This document shows positions 1-17,911 of a stretch of DNA of 22,338 nucleotides, piece by piece. A model generated the notes under the pieces. The model saw only the letters and a program-made list of their open reading frames with translations. It had not been told where the DNA came from and did not search any database. Made by a program: the position numbers and the translations under genes. Source of the DNA: a virus. The DNA lies in UHGV virus genome UHGV-0114988, one strand, 5' to 3'. Each line of letters begins with the position of its first letter. Position 1 is the stretch's first letter.

Positions 1-108
1 CTGCGCTTTGTAGGTGATGGCGTTATCGCGGTAATGATTCAGCCCCAGACTAAGCGCACCACAGGCCACCAGCAGGGCAATGATGACCACGCACAGTACG
101 CGGTTCAT
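1..108 (-). CDS. Rz: Rz-like i-spanin, N-terminal 36 codons (gene continues past window start)
   Basis: Minus-strand translation from ATG at 106-108 gives MNRVLCVVIIALLVACGALSLGLNHYRDNAITYKAQ: an N-terminal TM segment followed by NHYRDNAITYKAQ, which matches the lambda Rz N-terminus as I recall it. Confidence 0.7.
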   Translation of the reverse strand, partial: MNRVLCVVIIALLVACGALSLGLNHYRDNAITYKAQ

Positions 109-109
109 T

Positions 110-208
110 TCACCACCAGCGTATCTGACCGATGAAATAACCGGAGGCCATAATCACAAACACCAGCCAGATAAGAATGAACTTCCAGGTGGATAATTTT
201 TCAGCCAT
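110..208 (-). CDS. Hypothetical 32-aa hydrophobic peptide (MAEKLSTWKFILIWLVFVIMASGYFIGQIRWW)
   Basis: ATG-initiated ORF, single predicted TM helix, GGGAG about 9-13 nt upstream. Its TGA stop lies 1 nt before the Rz ATG, suggesting translational coupling. Below the ORF-track size cutoff. Confidence 0.3.
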   Translation of the reverse strand: MAEKLSTWKFILIWLVFVIMASGYFIGQIRWW

Positions 209-283
209 CACTCGAATCTCCCGAATCAGTTTGCTAAAATCAAACACACTTTCCCCTTTGACTTTTCCAGAGTCAGGAAACAC

Positions 284-318
284 AAAACCCCGCTTGCAGC
301 CAACAAACGGGGTTTTTA
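284..318. terminator. Hairpin AAACCCCG...CGGGGTTT flanked by T-runs on both strands (bidirectional terminator-like)
   Basis: Inverted repeat with about 8-bp stem and 15-nt loop; TTTTT follows on + strand and TTTTGTGTTT on - strand. Sits between the endolysin stop and the small ORF/Rz. Confidence 0.3.
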
Positions 319-406
319 CTTTTATTCACTTAGTTTTTGTCAGTTCGCAGGATTTCGTGTTATCCGTCCGTGTGAGAAAACCGCATTTTTCAGCAAAATA
401 TTCTGC

Positions 407-940
407 TTATCTGTCAATTCCCCAGCACGCCAGCGCACTCTCCTGGTCGCGACGGGATACCTGACCGTAACAGTTGTTTGAGCGAATACGGCAGTCTCTG
501 CCACCGTCCTTAATCCACCAGCGAATCGCTTCGCATGCTCCCCTGCGATCACCTGCATTAATTCGTCTGTAAAACGTCGACGGGAAACACTTACCGGGAC
601 CAATGTTGTACGGACAGAATGACGCGATCCCCGCTTTCTGGGGTTCGGTCAGCGGCACTCTGATGTTTTTCTCCACCCACGCCAGCGCTTTATCACGCTC
701 AATGGCGTTAACCTGGTCGCATTTTTCCTTCGACAACTTCATGCCCGGGACGACAGGTTTGCCATCCACCATGATGGCACCACGGCAGATGGTCCAGATC
801 CCCGCACCATCACGGTATGCCGTGGTGTGGTTACCTTCTTTTTCGTCAAGAAACTGGTCGATGATTTCAGGCGCAGAAGCACCTGCCGCAATCAGCGCCA
901 GAACGGCTACCGATAAACCATAGTGGAGTTTCTGAGTCAC
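407..940 (-). CDS. R: Phage endolysin, T4-lysozyme-like (GH24) with N-terminal signal-anchor-release (SAR) segment
   Basis: 177-aa ORF; hydrophobic N-terminus LSVAVLALIAAGASA, then a catalytic region (EGNHTTAYRDGAGIWTICRG) typical of phage lysozymes. Directly downstream of the holin. GTG start as given by the ORF track. Confidence 0.85.
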   Translation of the reverse strand: MTQKLHYGLSVAVLALIAAGASAPEIIDQFLDEKEGNHTTAYRDGAGIWTICRGAIMVDGKPVVPGMKLSKEKCDQVNAIERDKALAWVEKNIRVPLTEPQKAGIASFCPYNIGPGKCFPSTFYRRINAGDRRGACEAIRWWIKDGGRDCRIRSNNCYGQVSRRDQESALACWGIDR

Positions 941-944
941 CTAA

Positions 945-1160
945 TCACTCTCCCCGGGCAGCCTTGCGACGGTCCTCTTTAATTTTGAAATACAGATTCG
1001 TCAGGTATGTCAGGAACCCCAGACACAGGCTCCCCAAAACCCCGATAGCAGCCCACTGTGACGGAGTAACCTGATCCAACCACTGTAGAAACCAGTAACC
1101 CGCACTGCCCGCAGAAGTACCATAGGCTATGCCCGTTGATATTTTTTCCATCTGATACAT
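945..1160 (-). CDS. S: Class II holin, phage 21 S21-like pinholin (71 aa) with dual-start motif
   Basis: [31 protein letters not shown]...[13 protein letters not shown] closely resembles S21 as recalled. Met1 and Met4 give the holin/antiholin dual-start arrangement. Sits immediately upstream of the endolysin. Confidence 0.85.
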
Positions 1161-1236
1161 ATCCCCGCCCCGACAGACCTGTGCTACCGGAAATAAAAAA
1201 GGCCATCAGTGTTTTACTGATGGCCCTGCCCCGCCG

Positions 1237-1527
1237 TTACAGCATTGTGCCCGGTTCGGGTTGTGTGTCTGTCATATCCGTCACCGGTGACTCCGGCTGA
1301 ATATCACCATTTTCCGTGGTGACATCTTCCGCCTGTGGTTCCGGAAGCAGTTCCGGGGATGGTTCCGGCTGTGCACCAAGCAATTCATCCAGAATGGCAT
1401 CCACTTCTGCATCAAGACGCGCCTCAAGGTTCTGCCGAAGTTGCTGTTTCAGTGCGCTCCGGACTTCTTCAGAGCGCAGGACTTCCTTCACTGCCTCAGC
1501 AGTGACCAGCGATTTTATTTCTGACAT
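1237..1527 (-). CDS. Hypothetical acidic, Pro/Glu-rich protein (96 aa from internal ATG of track ORF 1237..1701)
   Basis: The track ORF begins with an implausible Cys-rich extension; the internal Met (MSEIKSLVTAEAVKEVL...) gives a compact gene between the nanS-p-like gene and the holin. No recognisable domain. Confidence 0.4.
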   Translation of the reverse strand: MSEIKSLVTAEAVKEVLRSEEVRSALKQQLRQNLEARLDAEVDAILDELLGAQPEPSPELLPEPQAEDVTTENGDIQPESPVTDMTDTQPEPGTML

Positions 1528-1564
1528 AGGATTTTCTCGTTGAAAGGGGTTGTCAAGAAAGTGA

Positions 1565-1747
1565 CTACGGAATGAGCGGATCTTCGGGTTTGCTTCCGGC
1601 TGACTGACTGGCGCTGATTTTCTCTGCGGCCCTTTTATCAATCTGCCTGCGCCAGAAATCGCGCACTGCCCTGTACCCACCCGAAAGAAGATACAGCACA
1701 CAGACCGCCGTACAGAAGTACAGCATCACCTGATGAACAAATGTCAT
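1565..1747 (-). CDS. Hypothetical small membrane protein (60 aa)
   Basis: ATG ORF with an N-terminal hydrophobic helix (LYFCTAVCVLYLLSGG) and a charged C-terminus, in the late operon between the esterase gene and the holin. Confidence 0.35.
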   Translation of the reverse strand: MTFVHQVMLYFCTAVCVLYLLSGGYRAVRDFWRRQIDKRAAEKISASQSAGSKPEDPLIP

Positions 1748-1843
1748 AGTTTCTTACCGTTATGGTTGACAATGAGAACTGTTTTCATTTAAAAACCGAT
1801 ATACGAAAGCATCTTTTCTTTACATTCTCCATTGGGATTACCT

Positions 1844-1880
1844 CCGCCAGCTTCCGTTCCTGCCGCTGGCGGCTTTTTTT
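1844..1880 (+). terminator. Hairpin (CCGCCAGC...GCTGGCGG) followed by TTTTTTT on + strand
   Basis: 8-bp GC-rich stem with a large 13-nt loop and a 7-T run; oriented against the minus-strand late genes. Confidence 0.3.
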
Positions 1881-1885
1881 GCCGG

Positions 1886-3877
1886 TTATGATGATGCCCG
1901 GCTTTCGTTAACTTTGACTGTGACCGTATCAAGCAGTACCGGATACGTCGCTTTTGCCCCCGTGATATCTGTCAGCGTCAGCGTATCTGCTGTAAAGCCA
2001 TCATTTGTCCACATCACCAGGTCAAACGCAGACTGCTCTGTATCATCAATCACCGGCACCACTTTTTCGCTGTTATTTCCCGCAAAGCGGAAAACAACTG
2101 TATGCCAGTTATGGTCAAATGCCCCAAATGTGCCCAGTTGCGCATTCGACTCCCCCTTGTGGTACATCAGATTCAGATTTGATGCATCCGTCTGAAGGAA
2201 GAAGGACGCCAGCATGCTGTTTGCTGTCGCGCCTGACGCCCACTGCGACACCGGCCAGTACAGACCAAAGACAAACTGACCGTTAACCAGTTCGACACCC
2301 TCCGGGATCTTAAACCGCACGGCAATTTCACCTCCCTTACTGAGAAGATTTTTTGCCTCCTCCACCGCAACAGTACGGAACATCTTCCAGGAGGTCAGTT
2401 TACCCGGCTGTTTTTCCAGTCGCAGCGCCTTCCTGCCACTGTCATCCGTCACAGTGCCTTTACCACCGGACGCATTCCACTGCTGCTCTGTCCATACACC
2501 ACTGCCACTGTTCGCATCATATCCGGCCACCATTCTTGTTACGGCTTCAGTATGACCGCCTGCAGAAGTACCTGCACCCTGCTGTTGCGTCGGACCCGCA
2601 GAGCCAGACTGTGCATCCCCCGTGGAGGCTGGCGTGGTCGCCAGCGGTGCAGACTGCCCGCTCAGGAACGGCAGCAAACGCCCGGCTCGCACCAGTATCT
2701 CTCCTGCCAGCCGATCTGAAACAATGCCTCTTCGCGCCCAGGAGCTGAAGTGCGTTTTACGATCGGCTGTCGTCCAGTTACCATTACTGCGTGACGCGGC
2801 ACCATAGTATCCCGCCGTGATAATGTCCGGATCTTCTGACGGCTCGTTTGTCGGCACATTCGCACCATGCTCATCCGTCATCAACGGCACAAAGTGAATA
2901 TTCTGCGCCGCCTTGCCTTTATAGCCTCCGTAAACCGCCTCATACTGCACTGCATACTTCGCCTTCCAGTCGTACGTGGTGTCACCGCAAATCCACGGGA
3001 CGCCGGACGTTGTCCCGCCAATACACTGGTCTGCAATATCTGCCAAGTCTGCACGGTATTTATTTACCATGGCAAGAAAAAGTGCATTGTGCTCTGCATG
3101 TCTCCCCGAACTGACATCTTTTTCCCCCTGCATCCAGATCACCGACAACAGCACGTTTTTCGGATTTTTCTTCAGGGCTGCACGCGTTCTGCTGACCAGG
3201 TCACGATACAACGGTTTATCCACCCCCCACAGGGAAGAGCCCGCTGTCGCACCCGACGCCTCATTAAACGCGCCCTCTGCTCCCGCAGTAAATCCCGAAT
3301 CGCCACGTCCACACGGGACAAGAAGGATCCCCGCACGGGCAGGCATAAACGGCAGCAGTTTTTTGGCCACATGCAGGGCATGCCCCACACAGCCATACTG
3401 CCCTTTATTGAGGTCTGCTTTCGGGTGATTCAGATTACTCACGTCCTGCACATCATGCAGACAATGGTCTGCAGGAATAATGTCGTTATATGCACAGGCC
3501 GCACCGCCCGGTGTCACCGTGCTGCGACGCGCCAGTTGCTTAATACGCGGGTCAGGACGATCATACGTATCCGGCAGCGGCAGCCCCTCGCCAAAAGACA
3601 TCGAGTTGGACTGCCCGGCCAGCGCAATGACAAAGTAATATTCCGGTTCGCTGGTGGTGCTGATAACTGTGCCTTCTCCATCCGACGGCTTCACCACCAC
3701 AGGTGTGGTGACATTACCTTCTGCGACAATCGCCTGAATAAGTGCTGCGCCATCATCCGTATACGAAGAAAACGGCCCGCCGTATGGTTGCCATCCTTCA
3801 CGAATTTTTTGAGCAAGCGCATCCGCAAGGTCTGACGGCGATGCCGCCCTGACCACGTCATAGTGTTTAAATGCCAT
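1886..3877 (-). CDS. nanS-p: NanS-p-like prophage sialate 9-O-acetylesterase (SGNH/SASA-type hydrolase), 663 aa
   Basis: GQSN catalytic-serine motif (YFVIALAGQSNSMSFGE) and an N-terminal segment resembling the DUF1737-type region of EHEC prophage NanS-p proteins, from memory. Strong GGGAGG RBS before the ATG at 3877. Occupies the position downstream of Q/tRNA as in Stx-type phages. Confidence 0.75.
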   Translation of the reverse strand: MAFKHYDVVRAASPSDLADALAQKIREGWQPYGGPFSSYTDDGAALIQAIVAEGNVTTPVVVKPSDGEGTVISTTSEPEYYFVIALAGQSNSMSFGEGLPLPDTYDRPDPRIKQLARRSTVTPGGAACAYNDIIPADHCLHDVQDVSNLNHPKADLNKGQYGCVGHALHVAKKLLPFMPARAGILLVPCGRGDSGFTAGAEGAFNEASGATAGSSLWGVDKPLYRDLVSRTRAALKKNPKNVLLSVIWMQGEKDVSSGRHAEHNALFLAMVNKYRADLADIADQCIGGTTSGVPWICGDTTYDWKAKYAVQYEAVYGGYKGKAAQNIHFVPLMTDEHGANVPTNEPSEDPDIITAGYYGAASRSNGNWTTADRKTHFSSWARRGIVSDRLAGEILVRAGRLLPFLSGQSAPLATTPASTGDAQSGSAGPTQQQGAGTSAGGHTEAVTRMVAGYDANSGSGVWTEQQWNASGGKGTVTDDSGRKALRLEKQPGKLTSWKMFRTVAVEEAKNLLSKGGEIAVRFKIPEGVELVNGQFVFGLYWPVSQWASGATANSMLASFFLQTDASNLNLMYHKGESNAQLGTFGAFDHNWHTVVFRFAGNNSEKVVPVIDDTEQSAFDLVMWTNDGFTADTLTLTDITGAKATYPVLLDTVTVKVNESRASS

Positions 3878-4442: not shown

Positions 4443-4519
4443 TGGCGCGTTGTACTGGATTCGAACCAGTGACCGATTGCTTAGAAGGCAATTGCTCTGT
4501 CCGGCTGAGCTAACAACGC
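4443..4519 (-). tRNA. tRNA-Arg (anticodon UCU), 77 nt
   Basis: Minus-strand sequence GCGTTGTTAGCTCAGCCGGACAGAGCAATTGCCTTCTAAGCAATCGGTCACTGGTTCGAATCCAGTACAACGCGCCA folds as a cloverleaf: 7-bp acceptor stem, anticodon stem ATTGC/GCAAT with loop CTTCTAA, T-arm ACTGG-TTCGAAT-CCAGT, and an encoded CCA. Confidence 0.85.
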
Positions 4520-4630
4520 ATGAAGTTTTCTGTAATCATCCTCGTTTGGTAACTGCCACTGGCTGACACTGAACCAGTGCGATGTCATGTTTTTCTTTCC
4601 TGTTTTATTAATTTTTCCCCAGCAGAAGAC

Positions 4631-4660
4631 AAGAAAAAAGGTTCCGGTGTTATCGGAACC
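4631..4660 (-). terminator. Minus-strand hairpin (GGTTCCG-N7-CGGAACC) followed by TTTTTTCTT; candidate tR'-like terminator or pause structure
   Basis: Perfect 7-bp stem with a U-tract on the minus strand, 30-60 nt downstream of the Q stop codon. Confidence 0.4.
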
Positions 4661-4679
4661 TTTCAGCAGTAAGCATACA

Positions 4680-4685
4680 ATTATA
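4680..4685 (-). promoter_or_regulatory. Consensus -10 hexamer TATAAT on minus strand just downstream of Q (candidate late promoter pR' -10 / Q-utilisation region)
   Basis: TATAAT read on the minus strand 5-10 nt after the Q stop. No convincing -35 was found, so this is tentative. Confidence 0.25.
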
Positions 4686-4689
4686 GACG

Positions 4690-5112
4690 TTATAACCATA
4701 ACATATTTTTTTGTGCGCACACAACCCTTTCAGGTAGTACAACTTCAGGATCCATATCCAACCTTACTCCCTGCAGAGTCAGAGCTCCTTCCAGAAATGC
4801 TTCAGACGCCTTCAGGGATGTCCGTACGCTAAAATGACTACGGTCTATCGCCTCAGCAATTGCACGCGTTGAGAGGCCGCCTATAAAACGTAACCCCAAG
4901 ATCAGCAAATCATCGTACGGGCAAACCATACTCATATGCGCGATGCAGGTATCAATCACCGCTCCATCCTCGTCAGAGCAACCGGGTTTGCCACTGTCGG
5001 TTACGTCCCGGGAAGTAACCGACATTGAGGGCCAGTCAACCATTGAACAGTATTCCTCGCTCGCCGCCCATCGCCCCCACCGCTCCAGAACAAGTTGCAT
5101 ATCTCTACGCAT
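4690..5112 (-). CDS. Q: Late-gene antiterminator Q (phage 21/933W-type Q family)
   Basis: N-terminus MRRDMQLVLERWGRWAA resembles 21/933W-type Q proteins as recalled. Position is immediately upstream of the tRNA/late lysis region. Confidence 0.65.
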   Translation of the reverse strand: MRRDMQLVLERWGRWAASEEYCSMVDWPSMSVTSRDVTDSGKPGCSDEDGAVIDTCIAHMSMVCPYDDLLILGLRFIGGLSTRAIAEAIDRSHFSVRTSLKASEAFLEGALTLQGVRLDMDPEVVLPERVVCAQKNMLWL

Positions 5113-5165
5113 AACGCTGGCCTCTACGTTTTGCTACGAAAAAATTTTCTGAGAACTACGTCTGT

Positions 5166-5185
5166 TTATCCGTGGGTGTGGATAA
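5166..5185. promoter_or_regulatory. Inverted pair of DnaA-box-like 9-mers (TTATCCGTG and TGTGGATAA, the latter the reverse complement of consensus TTATCCACA)
   Basis: Read directly: TTTATCCGTGGGTGTGGATAACG. One perfect and one 7/9 match to the DnaA box consensus. Confidence 0.4.
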
Positions 5186-5204
5186 CGCAGTTCCGATCCG
5201 CATA

Positions 5205-5224
5205 TTGCATGTATCAACATGCAA
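5205..5224. promoter_or_regulatory. Perfect palindrome TTGCATG-N6-CATGCAA (candidate dimeric regulator site)
   Basis: 7-bp inverted arms with a 6-bp spacer, between the DnaA-box pair and the iterons. Confidence 0.3.
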
Positions 5225-5242
5225 AAAGTTGCTAATTCGGAG

Positions 5243-5433
5243 TGGAACCACCTGCCCCCACCTGGAACCACCTTTTCCTAACCTTTCCCTCAATCGACTT
5301 ATATATATATATGGGGTTTCTAGTAGAAAGGCGGTTCCAGTGGTTCCAGTAGTTCCGCCCCGCTTGCCACAAGGTCTGCAAGGTGGAACCACCTTCTCTT
5401 TTAGGTGGTTCCGCATGGTTCCAGCGGTTCCCA
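5243..5433. repeat. Iteron array with central (AT)7 tract; candidate replication origin
   Basis: The 11-mer TGGAACCACCT occurs directly at 5243, 5263 and 5384, and inverted (AGGTGGTTCC) at 5403. Three tandem 9-mers GGTTCCAGT lie at 5333-5356, with further GGTTCC units at 5417-5433. The tract TATATATATATAT lies at about 5298-5312. The array sits immediately 3' of the primase-helicase gene and overlaps its last codons. Confidence 0.55.
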
Positions 5434-7587
5434 AACCTTGCATTTTTTCCCCCCAATTCGCCTTTGGGCACGCTTATACCCGCAATTTTGCAAAACATTA
5501 CTAATTCGCATTTCTTCGCGTTTTCCGATGCGGTCAGGATTTAGCCCAATCGCATCACGCAAAACATCACTTGCGCGTAAAAATTCGCAATTTCGCGGAA
5601 GTTCATTAGTCATCAGGTCGGGCGTGTCGAGCCATTTCTCTACCGTTTCAAGCCAAGCATCCTTGATGGTGTACTGTTCATGGACACTCGCTGCCAGTTG
5701 TTCAGCCTCACGGAACTGGATACCCCCCAGACGCTGAAACACCTCACGAGCCTCAGCCCAAAGTAAAAGGAGATCTCTTTTTATCGCTTTCACGTCGACT
5801 TTCGACACTTCCACGGGGAGCCAGCGACGGTTACCAGTCTTGTCCGCAAGGAATTCGTCCTCATTGGTGGTACCAACGAACAGCAGGCGACGAGGAAACT
5901 GGGTGGCGAACTCCCGGTATTTCGGGATCCAGTTTTCGTGAGTACGCGTCACAAACGCTTTGATTGACTCCAGCTCTTTGGTATTAAGTCCGCGCAGTTC
6001 ACCAATCTCTGCCACCAGCCGACCACGCATTTTTCGAGCGAGATCATCGTCTTTTTCGGCAAAAGAGATTTCAGTAAAAAACGCAGGATCAGGGCTCAGT
6101 GCCTCCACTCCGGAAGACTTACCGCAGCCCTGCGGACCAACGAGGATCGGCACCATATCCGCTTTGATGCCTGGCTCCAGTACTCGCCCCGCCAACGCGG
6201 TCCACATGTACATAGACACCGCACGGGTATAAGGCGTGTCGGCGGTACCGAAGTGCGTATGGTAGAAACATTCGATGCGCGGCACGCCATCCCACTCCAG
6301 TCCGTTCAGCCAGGTGATCGCTGAATCGAATGGTTGTTCATCGGCTGCAAGTAACACCACATCGCGAATAAGTTCACGGCCAACAGGTTTAAATCCCCGC
6401 TTTTCCATCGTGATGCGCAGGCGCGCATAATCCGCATCGGTGAATGCCCGCCATTGTCCGGATCCTGCCGGGGCAAACATGATTTCGTCGCGGAACTGGT
6501 CAAAGCGAATATCGATGTCCACAAAATCAGGACGTACTACTGCTTTGGCTGCGTTGCTGATGGTTGCCTCGATACGCCCCCATTTATCACGCTCGAAAGC
6601 AGGCAGCGGTAAAGGTTCCGCCACTTCGATGCTGGTCAGATCTTCGAAATCGTCGTTGCGGATCCCGATGGCATTCAGGAAATCTCCGTCATCACGATGC
6701 GCGCAACTGGCATGCAGGCATTTAAAATGCCCCTGCTCAAAGCCTGCGGTTCCCGCAGGAAAATAAACTGTGCTTGTTGGATCGCCTCCGCTACTGTGGC
6801 CGTCTTCAAACGGACAGCGGATATATCGTTCACCGTTTGCACCATCCAGCAGCGTCCAGCCATTGGCATCAAGATATTCAGCTGTATCATCCGTCGCGCC
6901 GGGCGTGAATGCTGAACGGTCGCGCATCTTCGTGTTGCCCGCTTCGGTGGTTACCGACACAGGGAGTTGTTCAGCCAGGCGCTGCCACAGCGTTTCAAGC
7001 TGCTCACCTGTAATAGCCGGAGGTTCATCCGGCAAACCACCGTCCCATTCAATACGCGCGCCGCTGCTGTGCGTACCACAGGCAACGAACTGCTGCCCGT
7101 TCGCCAGCAACTCGATAATGCCCATATCCCCCGCCAGGCGATGGATACGCTTACGGAAATCACCATCAACGGCCAGCAGATACAGACACTTATTACTGTT
7201 TGCTCGCCAGCGTCGCGGCGGCGACTCACCCAGAAGTTGCACAAGTGTTTTGCGAATATCTGCCTGAATGTCTTCATCTTCGCTATCGCAGTCCAGCGCC
7301 AGCCAGCCATGGCCTGTACGCACGCAGATGCCATAATCCGGTTCATTCGACCAGCGGGCAAAATCATGCTCAGTAACAACATGCCCGGTCCATTGAGCAA
7401 TACCGGTGACCTGGCGGTCCCGGTTATAGCGACTCGGCGTCTTACCCAACGCTTTCAATTTACTATCAGGGGATATGGTCGCACTGGGGTTACATACAAC
7501 TGGGAGAAGATGAGCAGTCCGCCCCAATACCAGGTCGAAATGAAACCACTCATCAGGCGTAGCTCCCCATGTTTTGCTATCGGACAT
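5401..7587 (-). CDS. Replication primase-helicase: N-terminal PrimPol/AEP-like domain fused to a VirE / P4-alpha-type Walker-A NTPase domain, 728 aa
   Basis: Acidic DxD-type motif (WLALDCDSEDED) in the N-terminal half. Walker A ILVGPQGCGKSSG and surrounding region resemble phage/plasmid primase P4-family C-terminal (VirE-like) domains. AAGGTG RBS; ATG at 7587 directly follows the cro-like stop. Confidence 0.8.
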   Translation of the reverse strand: MSDSKTWGATPDEWFHFDLVLGRTAHLLPVVCNPSATISPDSKLKALGKTPSRYNRDRQVTGIAQWTGHVVTEHDFARWSNEPDYGICVRTGHGWLALDCDSEDEDIQADIRKTLVQLLGESPPRRWRANSNKCLYLLAVDGDFRKRIHRLAGDMGIIELLANGQQFVACGTHSSGARIEWDGGLPDEPPAITGEQLETLWQRLAEQLPVSVTTEAGNTKMRDRSAFTPGATDDTAEYLDANGWTLLDGANGERYIRCPFEDGHSSGGDPTSTVYFPAGTAGFEQGHFKCLHASCAHRDDGDFLNAIGIRNDDFEDLTSIEVAEPLPLPAFERDKWGRIEATISNAAKAVVRPDFVDIDIRFDQFRDEIMFAPAGSGQWRAFTDADYARLRITMEKRGFKPVGRELIRDVVLLAADEQPFDSAITWLNGLEWDGVPRIECFYHTHFGTADTPYTRAVSMYMWTALAGRVLEPGIKADMVPILVGPQGCGKSSGVEALSPDPAFFTEISFAEKDDDLARKMRGRLVAEIGELRGLNTKELESIKAFVTRTHENWIPKYREFATQFPRRLLFVGTTNEDEFLADKTGNRRWLPVEVSKVDVKAIKRDLLLLWAEAREVFQRLGGIQFREAEQLAASVHEQYTIKDAWLETVEKWLDTPDLMTNELPRNCEFLRASDVLRDAIGLNPDRIGKREEMRISNVLQNCGYKRAQRRIGGKKCKVWEPLEPCGTT

Positions 7588-7590
7588 GGG

Positions 7591-7791
7591 TTACACCTTT
7601 TGTCTAGCTGTCACTTCCTGAAAAAGTTTTTCTATCGCACGTACTGTAGAAAAGCGAGGGTCAGAATGAACCCCGGTAAGAAGCCGACTAATAGAAGACT
7701 GCTTCACGCCTGCAATTTCGGCAATTTGGTTTTGGGTATACCCTGAATCAATCAAGCTTTTGACCATCTCTTGTGGTGTTAGTCCGGACAT
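7591..7791 (-). CDS. Cro-like small HTH DNA-binding protein (66 aa)
   Basis: HTH-like segment YTQNQIAEIAGVKQSSISRLLTG. Divergent from the CI-like repressor, first gene of the minus-strand early operon, GGAGA RBS. Confidence 0.6.
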   Translation of the reverse strand: MSGLTPQEMVKSLIDSGYTQNQIAEIAGVKQSSISRLLTGVHSDPRFSTVRAIEKLFQEVTARQKV

Positions 7792-7932: not shown

Positions 7933-8607
7933 ATGATTGATACTACCGATATCCTTTCTCAAAACATCAAGTACCTGATGGACAAAGCCAAGATAAGCTC
8001 GATAACTGAGCTGGCACGTCGGTTACAGCTGAACCAACCAACGCTACACAGGCTGGTATCAGGAGAGGTGAAAGATCCGAAATACGCAACGTTAAAGCAG
8101 ATCGCCGACTACTTCCACGTGTCACCAATAGACTTGGCAGAAAGGAGCCTTCAAGAAATGGAGAAAGAGGACGCGACAGGTATAAAAACGTATATTTCTC
8201 TTAGGTTTAATAAAGTACCTGTTTTGGGAAACACTCAGCTAGGCGTTGGAGGACTTTGGAGCGACACCCAATATTCAGTAGGTAGCAGTGATGGTTTCAT
8301 ATACTGGCCGACAAAGGATGAAGATGCATACGCCCTGAAATGTGTTGGTGATTCAATGATGCCTAGAATCAAAGAGGGGGAGTTCGTAATCGTCGAACCC
8401 AACCACGACTACACTCCTGGTGATGAAGTACTTGTGGTTACCCGGGACGGTGAGGTCATGGTTAAAACCTTCTTGTTCGAACGCGATGGCCTGTTCCATC
8501 TAATGTCTGTAAATGAAGATCATCCACCAGTCAGAGTACCACGCGAAAACATTGAAAAAATCCATTACGTGGCGGGGATCGCCAAATCCGCGCTACGTAT
8601 GTACTAA
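7933..8607 (+). CDS. cI: CI-like prophage repressor: N-terminal HTH plus C-terminal LexA/S24-type autopeptidase domain
   Basis: N-terminal HTH (SITELARRLQLNQPTLHRLVSG); C-terminal GDSMMP (Ser nucleophile) and VMVKTF (Lys) consistent with an S24 Ser-Lys dyad; 224 aa. Confidence 0.85.
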   Translation: MIDTTDILSQNIKYLMDKAKISSITELARRLQLNQPTLHRLVSGEVKDPKYATLKQIADYFHVSPIDLAERSLQEMEKEDATGIKTYISLRFNKVPVLGNTQLGVGGLWSDTQYSVGSSDGFIYWPTKDEDAYALKCVGDSMMPRIKEGEFVIVEPNHDYTPGDEVLVVTRDGEVMVKTFLFERDGLFHLMSVNEDHPPVRVPRENIEKIHYVAGIAKSALRMY

Positions 8608-9763: not shown

Positions 9764-9913
9764 ATGAAACCTGAACACATCCATCGACTGACGGGGCGCG
9801 ATGTTCTCCGTTATCGCCGTAAAAACTTCGATTTGATGACCGGTCTGGCCGTTGCCACTGCGCTCGGTCTGATCATCACTTTCATTCTCCTTGTAGCGAG
9901 GACCACAGTATGA
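9764..9913 (+). CDS. Hypothetical small tail-anchored membrane protein (49 aa; alternative start at 9743 gives 56 aa)
   Basis: [49 protein letters not shown]: basic N-terminus, C-terminal TM helix. AAGGA RBS 8 nt upstream. Stop TGA overlaps the ATG of the next gene (ATGA). Confidence 0.4.
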   Translation: MKPEHIHRLTGRDVLRYRRKNFDLMTGLAVATALGLIITFILLVARTTV

Positions 9914-10812
9914 GTTTAGAAACCAGTCTCGAACTTAATAATCAACTTCTGGCACAACATAATGCGCTGCTTGAACGTCTTATCCGCACAATGGCATCAG
10001 GTATTGTTATGCATCCTGACACGATTTCACGAGTGCAGGAATGTCGGGATACAGCAACTGAAGCTGAAAACATGTCAGCGGCAATGACACTGGATGATCT
10101 GGAGTTCAGCGACGTTATCGCACTGGCTGGTTTCTACCCGGTAGCCACCCCTATCACAGAAGACATGCTGCAACGTGCTGTTGCCTACCGTGATGCTGAA
10201 GGCGATAAACGAGTAGTTCAGATTGATGCTCTCGACAGCGCATTGCAGGGCGTCAAACGAGCCAGGGCGCTGCTTAAACCTGCTCTCCTGGACCTGTCCC
10301 GTAACATTCTTAAGTTCTGGGACGACCTGCCAACCATCGGCGAGCGACGTGCTTTTGCCGAGCAGCTACTTGATGCACCTGCAGATGGGCGTGATGAAGT
10401 TAAACCGAAAAAGGCTAGTGACAAAGATGGAGAACGCACGGGGCCGTTTTACGTCAAAAATATATCCGGCACAGCAGCCAGTGAACTCCACACCTTACGC
10501 AAGTTGAACGAGATGCTTAAAAAAGGCCATATCGAGATCAACCGTGTTGAGTACCTTCAGCTGCAGGAAGAATTTGCACGCAGAGACGCAGCAAATTCCA
10601 GCCAGAATAATGACGCCAAAGATGACCATACAATTGATTTCGCGGCACTACGCAAACAAGCTGAAGGGTTGATCCTCCAGTTAGCAAAAGGGGGTTACCG
10701 GGCAGAAGCTATTGCAATTCTGGAAAAACAGGGAGCCAGGAAACTTGGTGAAGTAATGGATGAAAATCTCGCTGAAGTAATCACCCTAGCTGAAAAAGCA
10801 CTGGAGGGTTAA
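9910..10812 (+). CDS. Hypothetical acidic helical protein (300 aa), first large gene of the rightward replication/recombination operon
   Basis: Long ATG ORF in operon context, translationally coupled on both sides. No motif recognised. Confidence 0.55.
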
Positions 10813-10814
10813 TC

Positions 10815-12116
10815 ATGCCAGACGTTCACGCACAACTTTCTCCATCATCAGCGCATCGATGGATGCGCTGCCCAGGAAGTCTGGCGCTGGAGGCCACACA
10901 ACCGGATAAAGAAACAACTTTTGCAATCGAGGGCACTGCAGCGCACGCGCTTGCTGAAAAAGTTCTACGAAACAGGCAAAGCCACCCGGAACACTACGCC
11001 GGATGCAATGTTTCTATGTTTCTCGGCTCATACCCCCTTCGCGAAAATCCTGATGATACATCTGGCCCACAGGTGGATGATGAAATGGTCGAAGCCGTTG
11101 GGCGGTATGTTGATACGGTCTGGACTCTTGCACAGAATAATGAACTATTGGTTGAACAACGTGTTGATTTCTCACATATAACGGGGGTGGAAGAATCTTT
11201 CGGAACTGCCGACGGCATAATCATCGCTGGTAACGAATTACAAATCCACGACCTGAAATATGGCAAAGGCGTCCGCATTGATGCAGAACAAAATGAGCAA
11301 CTACAACTGTATGCTCTGGGTGCGCTCGAACAATTCAGCATGCTGTATGACTTTGAGACTGTAAGATTATTTATTCACCAGCCAAGGCTCAACCACGTTT
11401 CAGAATGGTCATTAACCGTACAGGAACTTCAGTCTTTCGGTGAACGGGCACAGGAGGCCGCAACCAGTGCGATCCTTGTTCTCAATATTGCTGAATGCGA
11501 AGGCATTGAGACACTACCGCTGGAAAACTTCATACCTGGAGAAAAACAGTGCCGCTTCTGTAAAGCAAAAGCTATTTGCACTGCCCAGAAAATGCAGCAT
11601 TTACAAACAGCGGCCAGCGATTTTGAAGATCTGACAAAGCCTGTCAGCGAAATAATCACCAATGCCAGCGCACGTGTACCTCTGTTAACCATTGAGCAGC
11701 TTGCGGAGATCTATAGCCAGGCCGACTTTATTGAATCCTGGCTAAAGGCAGTACGAGACCGGGTTCACAATGAACTCAATGCCGGACATCCGGTACCGGG
11801 GTTTAAACTGGTAACAGGAAAACAAGGTAACCGGGCCTGGAGTGATGAAGAGGCAGCTCGCGCACTTCTGAAGGACCAGTTCAGGTACAAAACTGAAGAA
11901 GTATTCGACTTTAAACTTATTAGCCCCACAAAAGCCGAAAAACTTATCAAAAAGGCCAGTCCGCGCCGTTGGTCAAAAGTCGAGGCACTGATAACACGAG
12001 CTGATGGTAAACCCACCGTCGTTCCCGAGTCAGACCCACGCCCCGCACTCAATATTAACCCTATAAATGATTTCGACGACGTATCCGACGATACGCTAAC
12101 CGCAGACCTCATCTGA
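10815..12116 (+). CDS. PD-(D/E)XK nuclease, Cas4/RecB-like phage exonuclease with C-terminal Cys cluster (family often annotated DUF2800)
   Basis: N-terminal [15 protein letters not shown]-x-K-type motif IHDLKYGKG, Cys cluster [10 protein letters not shown] suggesting an Fe-S or Zn site. 433 aa. Family assignment from memory. Confidence 0.7.
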
Positions 12117-12131
12117 TTTAAGGAAATCCCC

Positions 12132-12680
12132 ATGAAACTGAAGCTGAACAATGTTCGTCTGGCTTTCCCGTCTCTGTTTGAAGCTAAAACTGTAAACGGC
12201 GAAGGCGATCCACGTTTCTCCGCAGTATTTTTAATGTCACCCAAACACCCACAACTGGAAGAAATCCGTAAAGCTATGAAGCAGGTAGCGAAGGAAAAAT
12301 GGGGAGAGAAGTGGGAGTCCATTTATAACCAGCTGGAGAAAAAACTCAATCTGTGCCTGCATGATGGTGATGAAAAAGCAGAGTATGAAGGCTTCCCCGG
12401 TAATTTCTTCCTGAATGCTGCTAACAAAGCGCGCCCTGCTGTTCTTGATCGCGATCGTTCGCCACTGATTCAGGCTGATGGACGTCCCTATGCAGGGTGC
12501 TATGTAAACGCCGTTATCGATATCTGGGCACAGGACAATAATTTCGGTAAACGCATTAATGCCTCACTCGGCGGAGTCCAGTTCCTGCGAGACGGCGATG
12601 CATTCGCTGGCGGCGGAGTGGCAAGCGCTGACGATTTCGACGATATCAGCGAAGGTGCTGATGCTGAAGCACTGATTTAA
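12132..12680 (+). CDS. Phage ssDNA-binding-like protein (DUF2815-type), 182 aa, acidic C-terminal tail
   Basis: N-terminus MKLKLNNVRLAFPSLFEAK resembles DUF2815 proteins that accompany family-A polymerases in phage replication modules (recalled). Acidic tail DDFDDISEGADAEALI is SSB-like. Confidence 0.6.
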   Translation: MKLKLNNVRLAFPSLFEAKTVNGEGDPRFSAVFLMSPKHPQLEEIRKAMKQVAKEKWGEKWESIYNQLEKKLNLCLHDGDEKAEYEGFPGNFFLNAANKARPAVLDRDRSPLIQADGRPYAGCYVNAVIDIWAQDNNFGKRINASLGGVQFLRDGDAFAGGGVASADDFDDISEGADAEALI

Positions 12681-12694
12681 TCCTGCTTCACAGA

Positions 12695-12720
12695 CGCCCG
12701 GTTAAACGCCGGGTGTTTTT
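12695..12720 (+). terminator. Intrinsic terminator after the SSB-like gene (CCCGG-loop-CCGGG plus TTTTT)
   Basis: Stem of 5-7 bp followed by a T5 run, 15 nt after the stop codon. Confidence 0.4.
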
Positions 12721-13063
12721 GCAAAGGGGAATATGCCCAGAGCTACCTGTATTGTTCTGGTTAGCACCCAGTCGCCCTGCTACCCCGATATTGACTCATC
12801 GCCCCCTTCCGGTTTATGCTCACCGAATCTCCCAAATGGAGATCGGGATTTGCAACCCGGAATTGTTAGGGGCGACACCAGACGCGCCAGCGTCTTTTTT
12901 ATTGTCGCAAGCTTTGCCACGTTCGCATTATGGCGGGCTGGCGGGGGCGCTTCGGCGCGCCGGTTTCCTCTAACGCCGGTATTGCAAACCTCGTCAGTTC
13001 GCCACCCATATGAGATTTGCAACTCAGTGGTGGCGGTGAATTTCACCGTTAGAGGTAACTGTG

Positions 13064-13828
13064 ATGGCAACTCAGCTCATCCCCGTTTTCAACGGCGCTA
13101 TCGCCAACGAAACCACCCTGCTCTGCAATGCTCGCGATCTGCACGCATTCCTTGGGGTAGGGAAAGTGTTTGCAGCGTGGATTACATCACGAATTGCAGA
13201 CTATGAATTCGTTGAAAATCAGGATTATATCGTAACGTTTTCCAAAACTGGAAAGCGTAAAAATGTTCTTTGTAAGGACTACCACCTCACTCTCGATACA
13301 GCCAAAGAACTGGCGATGGTGGAGCGCAACGAAAAAGGCCGCCAGATCCGCCGATACTTCATCGAGTGCGAAAAGAAACTTCGCCAGCAATCCTCCACGA
13401 TACTGGCGCCACACAGGGAGTGTCTGCCGAAGATGGTTTACCATCACCGGAGCAAATACAATCCGTACAGGGCTTATGCATGGGACGGAGAGAAAAGCGT
13501 TTACGTCGGGTGCTATCCGACTGTGGATGAGGCTGTCGCTGCTCAGGAACGCTTCTACCGGAACGGCAGCACGAAACGCATTCAGAAGGCGCAGACAGCA
13601 GTCAGTGACGCAGAGAAGGAAATGTTCATCAACAATCTCCGCGCCGTCTGCCATAACTTCCGGCGCATCAATGAAATCTGGCGGGCGCAGTTAATGCCTG
13701 CTCTCGAAAAAATGGATTCGAAACTGGTTTACCAGCTGCATGACCGCTTCAGCGACAGCATGTGCATTCTGCCGACCATAGAAGACCGCATCGGCAGATA
13801 TATTCCGCCGTCACAGCTTCCACACTAA
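13064..13828 (+). CDS. AntA-family antirepressor-like protein with uncharacterised C-terminal domain (254 aa from ATG; track start is GTG at 13061)
   Basis: N-terminal region (ARDLHAFLGVGKVFAAWITSRIADYEFVENQDY ... YHLTLDTAKELAMVERNEKGRQIRRYFIECEKKL) resembles the AntA/AntB N-terminal domain as recalled. AGAGG RBS. Confidence 0.6.
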   Translation: MATQLIPVFNGAIANETTLLCNARDLHAFLGVGKVFAAWITSRIADYEFVENQDYIVTFSKTGKRKNVLCKDYHLTLDTAKELAMVERNEKGRQIRRYFIECEKKLRQQSSTILAPHRECLPKMVYHHRSKYNPYRAYAWDGEKSVYVGCYPTVDEAVAAQERFYRNGSTKRIQKAQTAVSDAEKEMFINNLRAVCHNFRRINEIWRAQLMPALEKMDSKLVYQLHDRFSDSMCILPTIEDRIGRYIPPSQLPH

Positions 13829-13839
13829 TTCCACAATTC

Positions 13840-13866
13840 GCCCCTGCTCAGTCAGGGGCTTTTTAT
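13840..13866 (+). terminator. Intrinsic terminator after the antA-like gene (GCCCCTG-N6-CAGGGGC plus TTTTTA)
   Basis: 7-bp stem and T-run read directly, 12 nt after the stop. Confidence 0.45.
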
Positions 13867-13943
13867 CACCGTTTAATTTACGGAGGACTTCGTTTTGTCT
13901 GAAAACACTGATTTAAAAAAAGCAAAGTATCAGACCTGTAATA

Positions 13944-14543
13944 TCATTTGGCCTGATACTTACTTGCATCTATTTTCAATAATTGGGAATTATACTTCTT
14001 TATAACGCCTCGTCCCGGAAAAAGAAACCAAAACATAAAAGCCATCCATATACACAGCAGCATTAAAACAGCGCTCATTCCTATAAAAACAGCGCCATAA
14101 TTTAACGACCAACAGAAAAATATCAAGCCATCAGCCAAATAAAAGATAGAAACAACTTTAGAACACCAGCGACATCGTTTGTATTTACCTTTGTAGCGTA
14201 TAAAGAATCTATCGTATTTACACTGAATATGGGGTGCTAAATAACCCCACTGCCAAAACGGCATTTTCAATTCAGAATACGTTCTGACATAAATAACTAA
14301 CGTTCTTAATTTCTGGCTACTTATACCTAATATACTTTTTTTAACTTCTCTTTTGATTTCTGCCTTCATAAACTCTACATCAGAAGGCTCAATATGCTCC
14401 GGATAATTCTTCAGAATATGCGAGAATTTTGTTGTTTTCGGTAAAAACCAACTAGCATCTTTAAATAACTTATAAACACCGACTGGTGCAGTTATGGCTG
14501 AAATTATGACTCCAACAAGTGAGATAATATCTTTCGTATCCAT
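13944..14543 (-). CDS. Hypothetical AT-rich membrane protein (about 199 aa from ATG at 14543; track ORF starts at a TTG at 14570)
   Basis: Markedly AT-rich codon usage relative to its neighbours; predicted TM helix at the N-terminus (IISLVGVIISAITAPVGVY) and two at the C-terminus; Lys/Arg/Cys-rich central region. Opposite strand to the flanking replication genes. Confidence 0.5.
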   Translation of the reverse strand: MDTKDIISLVGVIISAITAPVGVYKLFKDASWFLPKTTKFSHILKNYPEHIEPSDVEFMKAEIKREVKKSILGISSQKLRTLVIYVRTYSELKMPFWQWGYLAPHIQCKYDRFFIRYKGKYKRCRWCSKVVSIFYLADGLIFFCWSLNYGAVFIGMSAVLMLLCIWMAFMFWFLFPGRGVIKKYNSQLLKIDASKYQAK

Positions 14544-14569
14544 GTAGCTAATTCTTCGGAGTAAATACA

Positions 14570-16633: not shown

Positions 16634-16638
16634 CTCCT

Positions 16639-17546: not shown

Positions 17547-17564
17547 CAATTTCGTTACGGTACC

Positions 17565-17879: not shown

Positions 17880-17911
17880 AGTAACTACCTCATAAACTCG
17901 ATTCTCAAAGT

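Follow-up and report, generated by a model that had tools for sequence, protein, structure and literature searches.

The segment at 5218-5432 of the virus genome UHGV-0114988 is very likely, judging from sequence comparison, the vegetative replication origin of a temperate phage, with the PrimPol/SF3-helicase/winged-helix protein of the adjacent gene (5401-7587, minus strand) as its initiator. The whole is best read as a putative Rep-ori module of SaPI/PICI type that a full-size temperate phage carries at the position occupied in lambda by O and P. This kind of module is already known; what appears to be new is a further one, carried by a full-size temperate phage. All coordinates refer to the window, the whole stretch of 22,338 nucleotides (22 kb) that was analyzed and that covers about half of the prophage.

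Organization of the iteron array

About ten copies of the 11-mer TGGAACCRCCT lie in both orientations at 5243-5432, where they surround a (TA)6T tract (5300-5312) and overlap the end of the primase-helicase gene (stop codon 5401-5403). The distal set (5243-5273, plus strand) lies on the Q side of the AT tract, faces it and consists of TGGAACCACCT at 5243 and 5263 with the degenerate copy TGCCCCCACCT at 5253-5263, at a spacing of 10 bp. On the primase side of the tract, and also oriented toward it, three tandem iterons (5329-5357) with 9-bp spacing read TGGAACCGCCT, TGGAACCACTG and, degenerate, CGGAACTACTG on the minus strand. A further perfect match, TGGAACCACCT, occupies 5384-5394 on the plus strand, and three stop-proximal iterons (5403-5432) lie in the last codons of the minus-strand primase gene; on the plus strand these read AGGTGGTTCCG (5403-5413), GCATGGTTCCA (5413-5423) and CAGCGGTTCCC (5422-5432), and they encode the protein tail W-EPLEPCGTT. 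Four iterons at 5384-5432 thus straddle the primase stop codon, across which 5384-5394 and 5403-5412 form a perfect 10-bp inverted pair with an 8-nt spacer.

The original prediction had described a dense repeat array between the primase-helicase stop and Q, reaching into the last primase codons, with three direct copies and one inverted copy of the 11-mer and three tandem units. The array is present, as are the direct copies at 5243, 5263 and 5384; the inverted copy (AGGTGGTTCCG) matches the 11-mer at only 10 of 11 positions, and the 9-bp tandem unit GGTTCCAGT is found at 5333 and 5342 but is degenerate (AGTTCCGCC) at 5351.

Clustering of these repeats was strong. The hexamers GGAACC and GGTTCC occur 15 times in the window, eight of them within 5244-5431, against 0.08 expected per 190 bp (Poisson P=3.8e-14; about 9e-12 after correction for window position). 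Seven of the window's 11 matches to the 11-mer at no more than two mismatches are in the array, which ranks first among the 8-mer clusters of the window and is its single iteron cluster. In a near-identical prophage (L001) every close match to the 11-mer within an 18-kb stretch falls in the array region. Another origin-like cluster at 17916-17974, made of three palindromic ACCACGGTGGT boxes before a ribbon-helix-helix-like gene, was set aside as operators. GC skew and the G+C profile gave no usable signal, and the G+C content of the region (0.47) is not low. An Rfam scan of 4500-5700 (E up to 1) returned only a sub-threshold chance match outside the region, and an apparent plus-strand terminator at 5380-5395 turned out to be merely an iteron with self-complementary flanks.

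Conservation in related loci

The comparison took in about 100 related loci, drawn from Enterobacterales, Orbaceae and Burkholderiales. In about 95 of them the iterons agree in number, order, orientation and spacing, with the AT block likewise unchanged; this layout is found in Escherichia, Trabulsiella, Pluralibacter, Pectobacterium, Xenorhabdus and Photorhabdus, and a cultured phage, Yersinia phage YeP4, shares it. Gilliamella/Orbaceae still show a recognizable iteron layout, with a shorter and displaced AT tract, as do Burkholderiales (L013 and L019), where the tract is absent. All relatives have the pair of plus and minus iterons at the stop codon, and the three tandem copies keep their place and 9-bp spacing regardless of iteron sequence; the distal set has two or three copies at 10- or 20-bp spacing. 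The downstream gene varies while the array stays, being of Q type in about 45 loci and of an unrelated HTH type in 45.

The best-conserved part of the intergenic region is a central block at 5291-5325 (CTACTAGAAACCCCATATATATATATAAGTCGATTG on the sense strand), located between the oppositely oriented iteron sets, with an identity of 90% or more in almost all columns among 79 distinct related sequences. We propose this block as the first melting site. It contains the (TA)6T tract (TATATATATATAT, 5300-5312), which is short (13-14 bp); the AT-rich tract that had been predicted is therefore there, with 6.5 units and not seven.

A conserved distal edge at 5220-5239 (TGCAAAAAGTTGCTAATTCG; sense strand CGAATTAGCAACTTTTTGCA), in which AACTTTTTGCA shows at least 90% conservation, marks the distal limit of the conserved stretch. 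It is a 17/20 direct repeat of 5489-5508, within the recognition-helix codons of the primase-helicase gene, and the local alignment score of this repeat was reached by five of 500 shuffles; the distal-edge repeat is also present in phage YeP4. The TTGCATG-N6-CATGCAA palindrome, once taken for an origin part, does occur as a string at 5205-5224 (TTGCATGT-N4-ACATGCAA, with an 8-bp arm and a 4-nt spacer). Only its right arm overlaps conserved sequence, the left arm and spacer being 10-40% conserved, and it is broken in alleles L002-L004. Since it is not kept in relatives it was rejected as a conserved element, and it is probably no functional part of the origin.

The candidate initiator

The primase-helicase gene (5401-7587, minus strand) encodes a protein of 728 amino acids with a PrimPol-like N-terminal domain (residues ~1-320), a VapE/SF3 helicase (427-639) and a predicted C-terminal winged helix (672-721). 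Its identification as a VapE/VirE-type primase-helicase was borne out by Pfam (VapE-like, 1.7e-59), by matches to PHROG primase/helicase families and by the match of residues 393-657 to PDB 7PDS, the SaPI1 Rep helicase (SaPI PriRep1; E=2e-33). Foldseek comparison of the AF2 model returned 7PDS (4e-14) together with the PrimPols of pRN1 and NrS-1; the N-terminal model matches the PrimPol structures 3M1M, 1RNI and 6A9W, and PF09250 is precomputed for close relatives of the protein. The suggested P4-alpha-type primase did not hold: the fold is PrimPol/AEP, and no Pfam matches to Toprim, D5_N or zinc-ribbon domains were found in the protein. NCBIfam gave no match. The current annotation of the gene reads only 'VapE domain-containing protein'.

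The C-terminal domain, encoded at 5425-5574 (minus strand), is predicted to be a DNA-binding winged helix and matches winged-helix domains that include the C-terminal domains of 7PDS and NrS-1. The recognition helix (689-701, KREEMRISNVLQN) is nearly invariant and is followed by a beta-hairpin wing (704-721, YKRAQRRIGGKKCKVWEP). Wing codons 707-717 (5437-5469, minus strand), which carry the specificity-associated residues A707, Q708, K715 and C716, are located upstream of all iterons. In the AF2 model the tail comes out as disordered, with pLDDT below 50 at residues 724-728.

Covariation of iterons and wing

The iteron core falls into at least ten classes among the roughly 100 loci, with an identical core in all copies within a locus, and across classes the spacers and the AT block are constant, the core having changed in concert. 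Within the protein, iteron class is associated with residues 707-728 and with nothing else: mutual information with class is 0.85 for residue 716, 0.77 for 715 and about 0.5 for 707-708, against 0.24 or less in the rest of the protein. CCACC iterons are paired with Trp719 in 47/47 loci and CAACC iterons with Phe or Tyr at this residue in 30/30, these figures being distinct loci and not a count of independent events. Among E. coli alleles, the sole protein-coding change within the primase-Q segment that goes along with an iteron switch is in the last 15-25 primase codons.

Since identical wing/iteron pairings recur in different genera, also in classes whose iterons all follow the stop codon, overlapping codons alone do not explain the link. 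An artefact of this kind was rejected for residues 707-717, whose codons are upstream of the iterons, and for classes with iterons at or after the stop (L003, L006, L008, L009, L073 and others), although it does apply to tail residues 719-728 in the GGAACC class. Cro was rejected as iteron reader, one Cro type being found with eight iteron classes and GGAACC iterons with seven Cro types; Cro/immunity type was scored, and ruling out the repressor as well presupposes that the repressor and Cro genes of an immunity region are inherited as a pair. These results suggest that the primase-helicase tail most likely reads the adjacent iterons, although linkage and shared ancestry would yield part of the association between wing codons and iterons that are 0-250 bp apart.

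Tentatively, and with the balance somewhat against it, the wing may act as a small specificity cassette that can be swapped and whose code is nearly readable. At iteron position 7, C would then be matched by Trp719 and A by Phe/Tyr, and positions 3-5 by residues 715-716 and 707-708, giving at least ten mutually orthogonal origin/initiator pairs in one phage lineage. The 20-nt direct repeat that brackets the wing codons and iterons could guide exchange, and the driver could be competition between co-resident prophages or replication-hijacking satellites.

Genetic context

The host element is a full-size temperate phage, an E. coli prophage of 35-43 kb in IMG/VR contigs, and terminase, portal, head and lysis genes are present in the same prophage of O103:H2 12009. 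It is thus no small helper-dependent satellite devoid of virion, packaging and lysis genes: the replicon is PICI-like and the element itself is a phage. Members of the phage group are carried by about 2% of complete E. coli genomes, O103, O45 and O55 pathogens among them, and are also present in Salmonella, Enterobacter, Klebsiella, Yersinia, Xenorhabdus and Photorhabdus.

As originally predicted, the module sits between cro and Q in place of O/P: the primase-helicase gene is the sole gene there, and no O-like or P-like ORF, as a lambda-type O/P origin would have, was found between cro and Q. The phage has its own PolA, SSB, nuclease and SNF2 helicase genes on its other arm, indicating that the primase is not a simple O/P swap. 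The PolA-based replication module might use a different start site, and a second origin is possible in the other half of the prophage, outside the window. Directly downstream of the array lies the Q antiterminator gene (4690-5112, minus strand; Pfam Phage_antitermQ, 7.5e-31). A scan for sigma-70-type promoters and intrinsic terminators found neither between the primase gene and Q, with no sigma-70-like site in 4600-5600 and the sole minus-strand terminator after Q; the candidate origin is therefore probably co-transcribed with both genes.

Proposed mechanism and alternatives

The predicted PICI-like origin, iterons with an AT element 3' of a VapE/VirE-type gene, is supported by the layout conserved across genera, the SaPI1 Rep homology and the wing covariation. 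By analogy with SaPI Rep, we infer that the C-terminal winged helix of each subunit would bind one 11-bp iteron (TGGAACCRCCT), the constant ACC(T) part being read by the nearly invariant recognition helix and the variable positions 3-7 by the beta-hairpin wing (704-721). The iteron sets, three copies placed 9 bp apart on the primase side and two or three placed 10 bp apart on the Q side, would converge on the invariant CCCC(AT)nAAGTCGA block and nucleate two helicase rings, one per side, whereupon the AT tract would melt. The PrimPol domain would prime, and phage PolA, SSB and accessory proteins would then take over. The four stop-codon iterons would probably serve binding cooperativity or feedback of the protein on its own transcript.

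A host-DnaA-dependent origin, with the dyad at 5166-5185 and the palindrome as integral parts as in oriC-like and many plasmid origins, was also considered. A perfect DnaA box, TTATCCACA (5177-5185, minus strand), does lie about 60 bp from the distal iterons within a TTATCC-N8-GGATAA dyad (5166-5185), and of the 38 loci whose downstream gene is a closely related Q (types 0, 1 and 12), 28 keep a perfect box. The box is, however, a single one; of the inverted pair first described, the 'partner' TTATCCGTG has three mismatches to TTATCCACA, which reduces the pair to the dyad, and boxes with at most one mismatch showed no enrichment (seven observed, 4.9 expected; 23 of 100 shuffles reach seven). 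None of the 45 loci with an HTH-type downstream gene and the same iteron/AT module carries a perfect box, indicating that it travels with the Q-gene 5' flank, and in alleles L003 and L004 it is degenerate (TTATTCACG). No box cluster conserved with the origin was thus found, the polymerase and SSB are phage-encoded, and SaPI-type Reps are self-loading, with no extra loading factor identified (PMC9371898). Initiation through DnaA is accordingly very unlikely, and DnaA boxes drop out of the predicted origin; from its distribution, the dyad belongs to the Q-gene 5' flank, outside the primase/iteron module, and is an accessory element at most.

The remaining alternatives accept the array and assign it another role. 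It is well known that plasmid initiators autoregulate through their own iterons, and the iterons could likewise be bound by the primase-helicase C-terminal domain mainly for regulation, either of the primase itself or as a roadblock timing read-through into Q. The four iterons straddling the stop codon, with their perfect inverted pair, would suit such a role, and Q transcripts must cross the array in the absence of an intervening promoter or terminator. We consider it unlikely as the main function, since the array is kept with Q-type and HTH-type downstream genes alike, convergent iterons around an invariant AT block are a SaPI/PICI origin hallmark (PMC9371898, PMC6092414), and regulation is compatible with origin function and usually additional to it. 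That some other protein reads the repeats, for partition, packaging initiation or a different regulation, with the primase-tail link reflecting linkage only, appears quite improbable. Centromere-like and pac sites can carry iteron arrays, and tight physical linkage could in principle yield the iteron/wing association; but the window holds no ParA/ParB-like genes and the element is integrated by an integrase, Cro type is unassociated with iteron class, E. coli iteron switches go with no protein-coding change in the primase-Q segment other than that in the last primase codons, and the predicted DNA-binding winged helix sits exactly at the covarying tail. A functionless low-complexity patch made by chance or slippage, for which only the general frequency of short intergenic repeats speaks, is extremely improbable and already contradicted by the comparative data: the clustering has P ~4e-14, and the layout is kept across bacterial orders with concerted core change.

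If the reading of 5218-5432 as the phage origin is true, a replication origin and an initiator can be assigned to a widespread, unstudied group of temperate phages. The presence of a candidate Rep-ori module with a SaPI Rep-homologous helicase in complete phages bears on the ancestry of satellite replicons. The natural iteron/wing classes, at least ten, provide a concrete hypothesis for winged-helix control of origin specificity and a possible source of orthogonal primase-dependent conditional origins (cf. PMC11338833); should the wing also be a cassette, they would be ready-made orthogonal conditional origins for E. coli engineering.

Comparison with known replication systems

SaPI/PICI origins are defined by a location directly downstream of rep, 6-12 iterons, described as penta- or hexanucleotides, and a central AT-rich region with at least two opposed iterons per side, and SaPI Rep binds the iterons through its C-terminal winged helix (PMC9371898). 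E. coli PICIs follow the same plan, the pri-ori of EcCICFT073 having been shown to support plasmid maintenance (PMC6092414), and this PICI primase-ori pair has been employed as a conditional origin for non-replicative DNA payloads (PMC11338833). Autonomous replication by pri-rep-ori is thus known for EcCICFT073 and SaPIs (PMC6092414, PMC9371898, PMC11338833). The phage module likewise has its candidate origin directly 3' of the initiator gene, about ten iterons with opposed sets flanking an AT region, and a SaPI Rep-homologous helicase with a predicted C-terminal winged helix. It shares the 3' origin, the two opposed iteron sets and the AT tract with SaPI1 Rep1, SaPI5 PriRep5 and the EcCICFT073 pri-ori, and the self-contained helicase initiator with a C-terminal winged helix, which is primase-fused in SaPI5 and some PICIs; there, too, Rep and ori specificity comes in matched pairs (PMC9371898, PMC6092414). 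On the other hand, SaPIs and PICIs are satellites of 10-15 kb, whereas the module described here is in a 35-43 kb phage that has its own PolA replisome and its own genes for packaging, head and lysis. Its iterons are 11 bp long with a variable 5-bp core, unlike penta- or hexanucleotides, and a second group of them, overlapping the stop codon, encodes the protein tail.

P4 alpha combines primase, SF3-type helicase and a C-terminal winged helix for the binding of short repeats in one multifunctional protein, and one repeat region adjoins the alpha gene. The phage protein shares this primase/SF3 helicase/winged-helix plan and the repeat region next to the gene (domain logic in PMC4234260), but P4 alpha has a bacterial, Toprim-type primase (PMC4234260), in contrast to the PrimPol/AEP fold found here. 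The P4 type I iteron TGTTCACC, an octamer, is absent from the array region and occurs once in the window (19364), as expected by chance, and P4 has two separated cis regions (ori and crr) whereas the window has a single cluster. Membership in the P4 alpha/ori-crr group was rejected.

The pRN1 ORF904-type replicons and the Bordetella phages BIP-1/BPP-1 have the same PrimPol-SF3 helicase-winged helix plan, with a cis-acting origin likewise just 3' of the gene (PMC4234260). The pRN1 PrimPol is a fold match for the N-terminal domain, and in single-stranded form the inverted iteron sets of the array are predicted to form a long hairpin whose loop contains the AT tract (z=-4.4), a likeness to the pRN1 origin. 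The latter, however, is described as a 100-nt stem-loop without iterons, whereas the phage array has discrete 11-bp class-specific iterons, and the phage helicase is of the VapE subfamily.

With lambda O and ori-lambda the module has in common its map position, after cro and before Q, an initiator that in lambda binds repeated sites by an AT-rich region, and transcription, rightward in lambda, that crosses the origin. In lambdoid phages initiator and iterons differ together between relatives, resulting in replication specificity types. The lambda iterons, however, are part of the O gene and are recognized by the N-terminal domain of O, and O is not a helicase and needs P together with host DnaB, DnaG and Pol III; in the phage described here the iterons are at and after the 3' end of the gene, the candidate initiator is itself a primase-helicase, and the putative specificity determinant is at its extreme C terminus.

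Organization of the primase-Q region

The 728-aa primase-helicase ORF (5401-7587, minus strand) lies between a cro-like HTH gene (7591-7791, minus strand) and a Q antiterminator gene (4690-5112, minus strand), and a cI-like S24 repressor gene (7933-8607) is divergent from all three. Among 5426 complete E. coli genomes, about 100 contain the prophage segment, O103:H2 12009, O45:H2 and O55:H7 strains among them. RefSeq names the 728-aa protein only 'VapE domain-containing protein' and annotates no feature in the 288-bp gap between its ORF and Q. Scans from the primase gene to Q detected neither an Rfam family nor a sigma-70-type promoter nor a terminator on the minus strand, and the origin proposed here is probably transcribed along with both genes. 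Transcription of the origin matters in the case of ori-lambda and may do so here. About 25 nt past the Q stop codon, an 11-bp G+C-rich hairpin with a T-run after it (4636-4664, minus strand) resembles the terminator expected for a short pR'-type transcript, on which Q would act.

The repeat array occupies this gap and the final ten codons of the 728-aa ORF, and its unit is the 11-mer TGGAACCRCCT. On the plus strand, perfect copies are found at 5243, 5263 and 5384 and a degenerate copy at 5253. On the minus strand, three copies are spaced by 9 bp (5329-5339, 5338-5348 and 5347-5357, the last degenerate) and further copies lie at 5403-5413, 5413-5423 and 5422-5432. The iteron sets flanking the AT tract TATATATATATAT (5300-5312) are both oriented toward it, and when the region was folded as single-stranded DNA these sets paired with each other, the AT tract lying in the loop (-34.9 kcal/mol, z=-4.4).

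The 22-kb window has 15 GGAACC/GGTTCC hexamers, and 8 of them fall within 190 bp, where 0.08 would be expected (Poisson P=3.8e-14; about 9e-12 when corrected for window placement). Of the window's 11-mer matches with at most two mismatches, 7/11 fall in the array, and a scan for 8-mer families found no other 250-bp stretch of the window equal to it in copy number. The array claimed in the original prediction was thus confirmed, its clustering being far beyond chance, with some corrections of detail. The three direct copies of the 11-mer are as described, while the inverted minus-strand copy matches at 10 of 11 positions and is not perfect; the three GGTTCCAGT units are in tandem, the third being degenerate; and the tract given as (AT)7 is 6.5 units long.

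Domain structure of the primase-helicase

A VapE-like domain was identified at residues 427-639 (Pfam, 1.7e-59), and both halves of the protein fall in primase and helicase families of PHROGs. The sole solved relative found by sequence was 7PDS (E=2e-33, residues 393-657), the SaPI1 Rep ('PriRep1') helicase in complex with DNA (PMC9371898), which was also matched by the AF2 model of the protein (mean pLDDT 70.6; Foldseek, 4e-14). The N-terminal third of the model resembles PrimPol domains (pRN1 ORF904, a Sulfolobus plasmid, phage NrS-1), and PF09250 is recorded for many close relatives. The C-terminal 60 residues were predicted to form two helices (672-680 and 689-701) and two strands (704-711 and 714-721), and residues 646-728 modelled alone gave the identical secondary structure (pLDDT 75). 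Judged from sequence and models, the protein is a PrimPol and an SF3/VapE helicase followed by a predicted winged helix. No Toprim, D5_N or zinc-ribbon hits were obtained in it, and the P4 octamer TGTTCACC was not found in the array region. Of the VirE/P4-alpha-type primase originally proposed, the VapE helicase domain therefore stands, but the P4-alpha type of primase does not, given the PrimPol fold and the lack of those three domains.

The final ten residues, WEPLEPCGTT (5404-5433), for which disorder is predicted, are a translation of the protein's own presumed binding sites. Where the stop codon falls relative to the first iterons (before, within or after) varies with the iteron class, and in the viral contigs L040 and L054 reading continues into a different tail, PPKREGGSTLQAL.

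Conservation of the iteron/AT module

The region was compared among four E. coli alleles, 22 loci from one-genome-per-species contigs, 80 viral contigs and the Yersinia phage YeP4. One order of elements is shared across Escherichia, Xenorhabdus, Photorhabdus, Pectobacterium and Yersinia. Read along the primase sense strand, two to three iterons and one inverted at the stop codon are followed, after about 35 bp, by three tandem iterons at 9-bp spacing, then by about 20 bp, the (TA)n tract, about 30 bp and finally two to three iterons, again inverted, spaced by 10 or 20 bp. This layout is still recognisable in Gilliamella/Orbaceae, with a shorter, displaced (TA)n tract, and in Burkholderiales MAGs, one example carrying nine to ten copies of TGTCACCAC 3' of the gene. 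The two Burkholderiales loci (L013 and L019) have the iteron layout 3' of the gene and no (TA)n tract, so not every member of the family has the putative melting element. Across 79 distinct aligned sequences, conservation was highest in the central block CTACTAGnAAACCCCATATATATATATAAGTCGA, reaching at least 90% in nearly all columns, and it dropped distal to position 5218 or so, which delimits a conserved module of approximately 5218-5432.

A 20-nt direct repeat (17/20 identical, 5220-5239 and 5489-5508) flanks the cassette formed by the wing-coding sequence and the iterons. Its inner copy encodes the recognition helix of the winged helix (RISNVLQ), its outer copy forms the conserved boundary of the module on the distal side, and the repeat occurs in weaker form in YeP4. 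The alignment score of the repeat was reached in 5 of 500 shuffles, and the repeat may serve to guide recombination when cassettes are exchanged or be left over from a duplication.

The original prediction also included an inverted pair of DnaA boxes and a TTGCATG palindrome. One of the boxes is genuine and its partner, TTATCCGTG, has three mismatches to TTATCCACA; DnaA boxes are not enriched in the window (7 observed, 4.9 expected). A perfect box was present in 28 of 38 loci whose downstream Q protein is of the same three subtypes, whereas none of 45 loci with the same iteron/AT module and an HTH-type gene downstream had one; in the E. coli alleles L003 and L004 the site reads TTATTCACG. The pair was rejected as a part of the module, and the box belongs to the Q flank. 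Of the palindrome, only the portion of the right arm shared with the conserved motif AACTTTTTGCA is conserved. Both the pair and the palindrome are regarded as incidental.

Iteron classes and the wing of the primase-helicase

Each locus has one iteron core in all copies and either orientation, and the core differs between loci. When cores were set against the wing residues (GK-x-x-x-x-aromatic), TGGAACCACC was paired with KK[CS]K[VLI]W, TGTACCAACC with K[MV][TV]RIF, TGTCCCAACC with KKMRIF, TGTTACCACC with K[LS]MKVW, TGTAACCACC with KVQRVW, KVLKVW or KVCKVW, TAGACCACC with KQIRVW, TAGACAACC with KQQR[VI]F, GTAACAACC with KSQRVY and AGCCACC with KMTKAW. More distant cores occur outside Enterobacterales. 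The same pairings recur across hosts: KKCK[VL]W with GGAACC in Escherichia, Trabulsiella and Photorhabdus, xTRIF/xVRIF with GTACCAACC in Escherichia, Xenorhabdus and Photorhabdus, and KQQR[VI]F with TAGACAACC in viral contigs and YeP4. The core TGTATCCACC was found only mixed with TGTAACCACC, in KVLKVW loci; phages with this wing (L061, L065, L066, L067 and L071) mix GTAACCACC and GTATCCACC in one origin, in about five and four copies. Such origins may represent a state of relaxed specificity or a transition between classes.

Mutual information between residue and iteron class, taken over 74 distinct full-length proteins, was highest at 716 (0.85 of class entropy) and 715 (0.77), followed by 720-728 and 707-708, and was at most 0.24 in the rest of the protein; 707-708 and 715-716 sit in the two predicted strands of the wing (704-711 and 714-721). 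Residue 719 was Trp in 47/47 distinct loci with CCACC iterons and Phe or Tyr in 30/30 with CAACC iterons, counts which omit L011, a Phe locus with neither.

Part of this association is expected on other grounds. In the tail W-EPLEPCGTT of the GGAACC class three iterons are simply translated, which makes the link of residues 719-728 to them trivial; this does not apply to residues 707-717, and in several classes the iterons begin at or after the stop codon. The wing codons also adjoin the iterons, so linkage and shared descent inflate the association. Linkage does not account for the concerted replacement of all eight to ten copies with the intervening sequence kept. The alleles of strains 97-3250 and XH993 have GTACCAACC and GTTACCACC origins; the proteins of the E. 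coli alleles are 94-98% identical (98% between the window and allele L002), and near the iteron switch their coding changes are limited to the C-terminal 15-25 residues, the origin spacers and AT block being unchanged across it. The upstream cro gene, as the source of another possible iteron reader, fell into 18 sequence types unrelated to iteron class: eight iteron classes are seen with one and the same Cro type, and seven Cro types with GGAACC iterons. Cro was therefore rejected in this role; the repressor is excluded only if it is inherited together with the Cro of its immunity region.

Taken together, anatomy, homology, conservation and covariation support the original reading of the array, which we consider likely to be a replication origin. 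To this reading the comparison adds a natural series of iteron/wing specificity classes, from which a concrete model of how the origin is recognised can be framed and tested and orthogonal conditional origins might be drawn.

The element as a phage

The element is a complete temperate phage: terminase, portal, head and lysis genes are present in the strain 12009 copy of the prophage, IMG/VR contigs bearing the element are 35-43 kb, and its relative YeP4 has been cultured. The arm opposite the primase (9910-20448, plus strand) encodes a DUF2800 PD-(D/E)XK nuclease, an Enc34-type SSB, a family-A DNA polymerase and an SNF2 helicase, so that most of the replisome is phage-borne and split either side of the immunity region. 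A small ORF at 17113-17409 looks VRR-NUC-like by eye. The second strongest repeat cluster of the window consists of three palindromic ACCACGGTGGT boxes, one reading ACCACAGTGGT (17916-17974, spacing 25 and 23 bp), which lie directly 5' of a gene for a 104-aa ribbon-helix-helix-like protein (17565-17879, minus strand), overlap a TTGACA-like hexamer and look like the operator set of an Arc/Mnt-type repressor. Between Q and the lysis genes, a 663-aa protein (1886-3877, minus strand) has DUF1737, SASA (sialate O-acetylesterase) and DUF6645 domains, a composition known from the NanS-p esterases of Stx prophages. The near-identical 12009 prophage has just a 113-aa hypothetical gene at this position, which indicates a moron-like insertion.

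Comparison with known replication systems

The closest system is that of the SaPI/PICI satellites. SaPI origins lie immediately 3' of rep and have six to twelve iterons, at least two on each side of an AT-rich centre in opposite orientations, and the C-terminal winged helix of the self-loading Rep helicase reads them (PMC9371898), a description that could almost have been written of the array region. E. coli PICIs follow the same origin plan, their pri-ori segment maintains a plasmid (PMC6092414), and this pair has already served as a conditional origin that depends on the primase (PMC11338833). By sequence comparison, the array and the 728-aa protein are probably a Rep-ori module of this type carried by a phage: as a complete temperate phage the element does not fit the definition of a PICI, but its replicon does. 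In pRN1 and the Bordetella phages BIP-1 and BPP-1, a PrimPol-SF3-winged-helix protein likewise has its origin just 3' of the gene, described as a stem-loop (PMC4234260). The protein plan and the position of the proposed origin are the same here, and the iteron sets also pair as single-stranded DNA; it may be a single design that goes by 'stem-loop' in the one case and by 'convergent iterons' in the other. The primase part differs from that of P4 alpha in being a PrimPol, and the likeness to lambda, with its type-specific initiator/iteron pairs, is positional and conceptual rather than one of homology.
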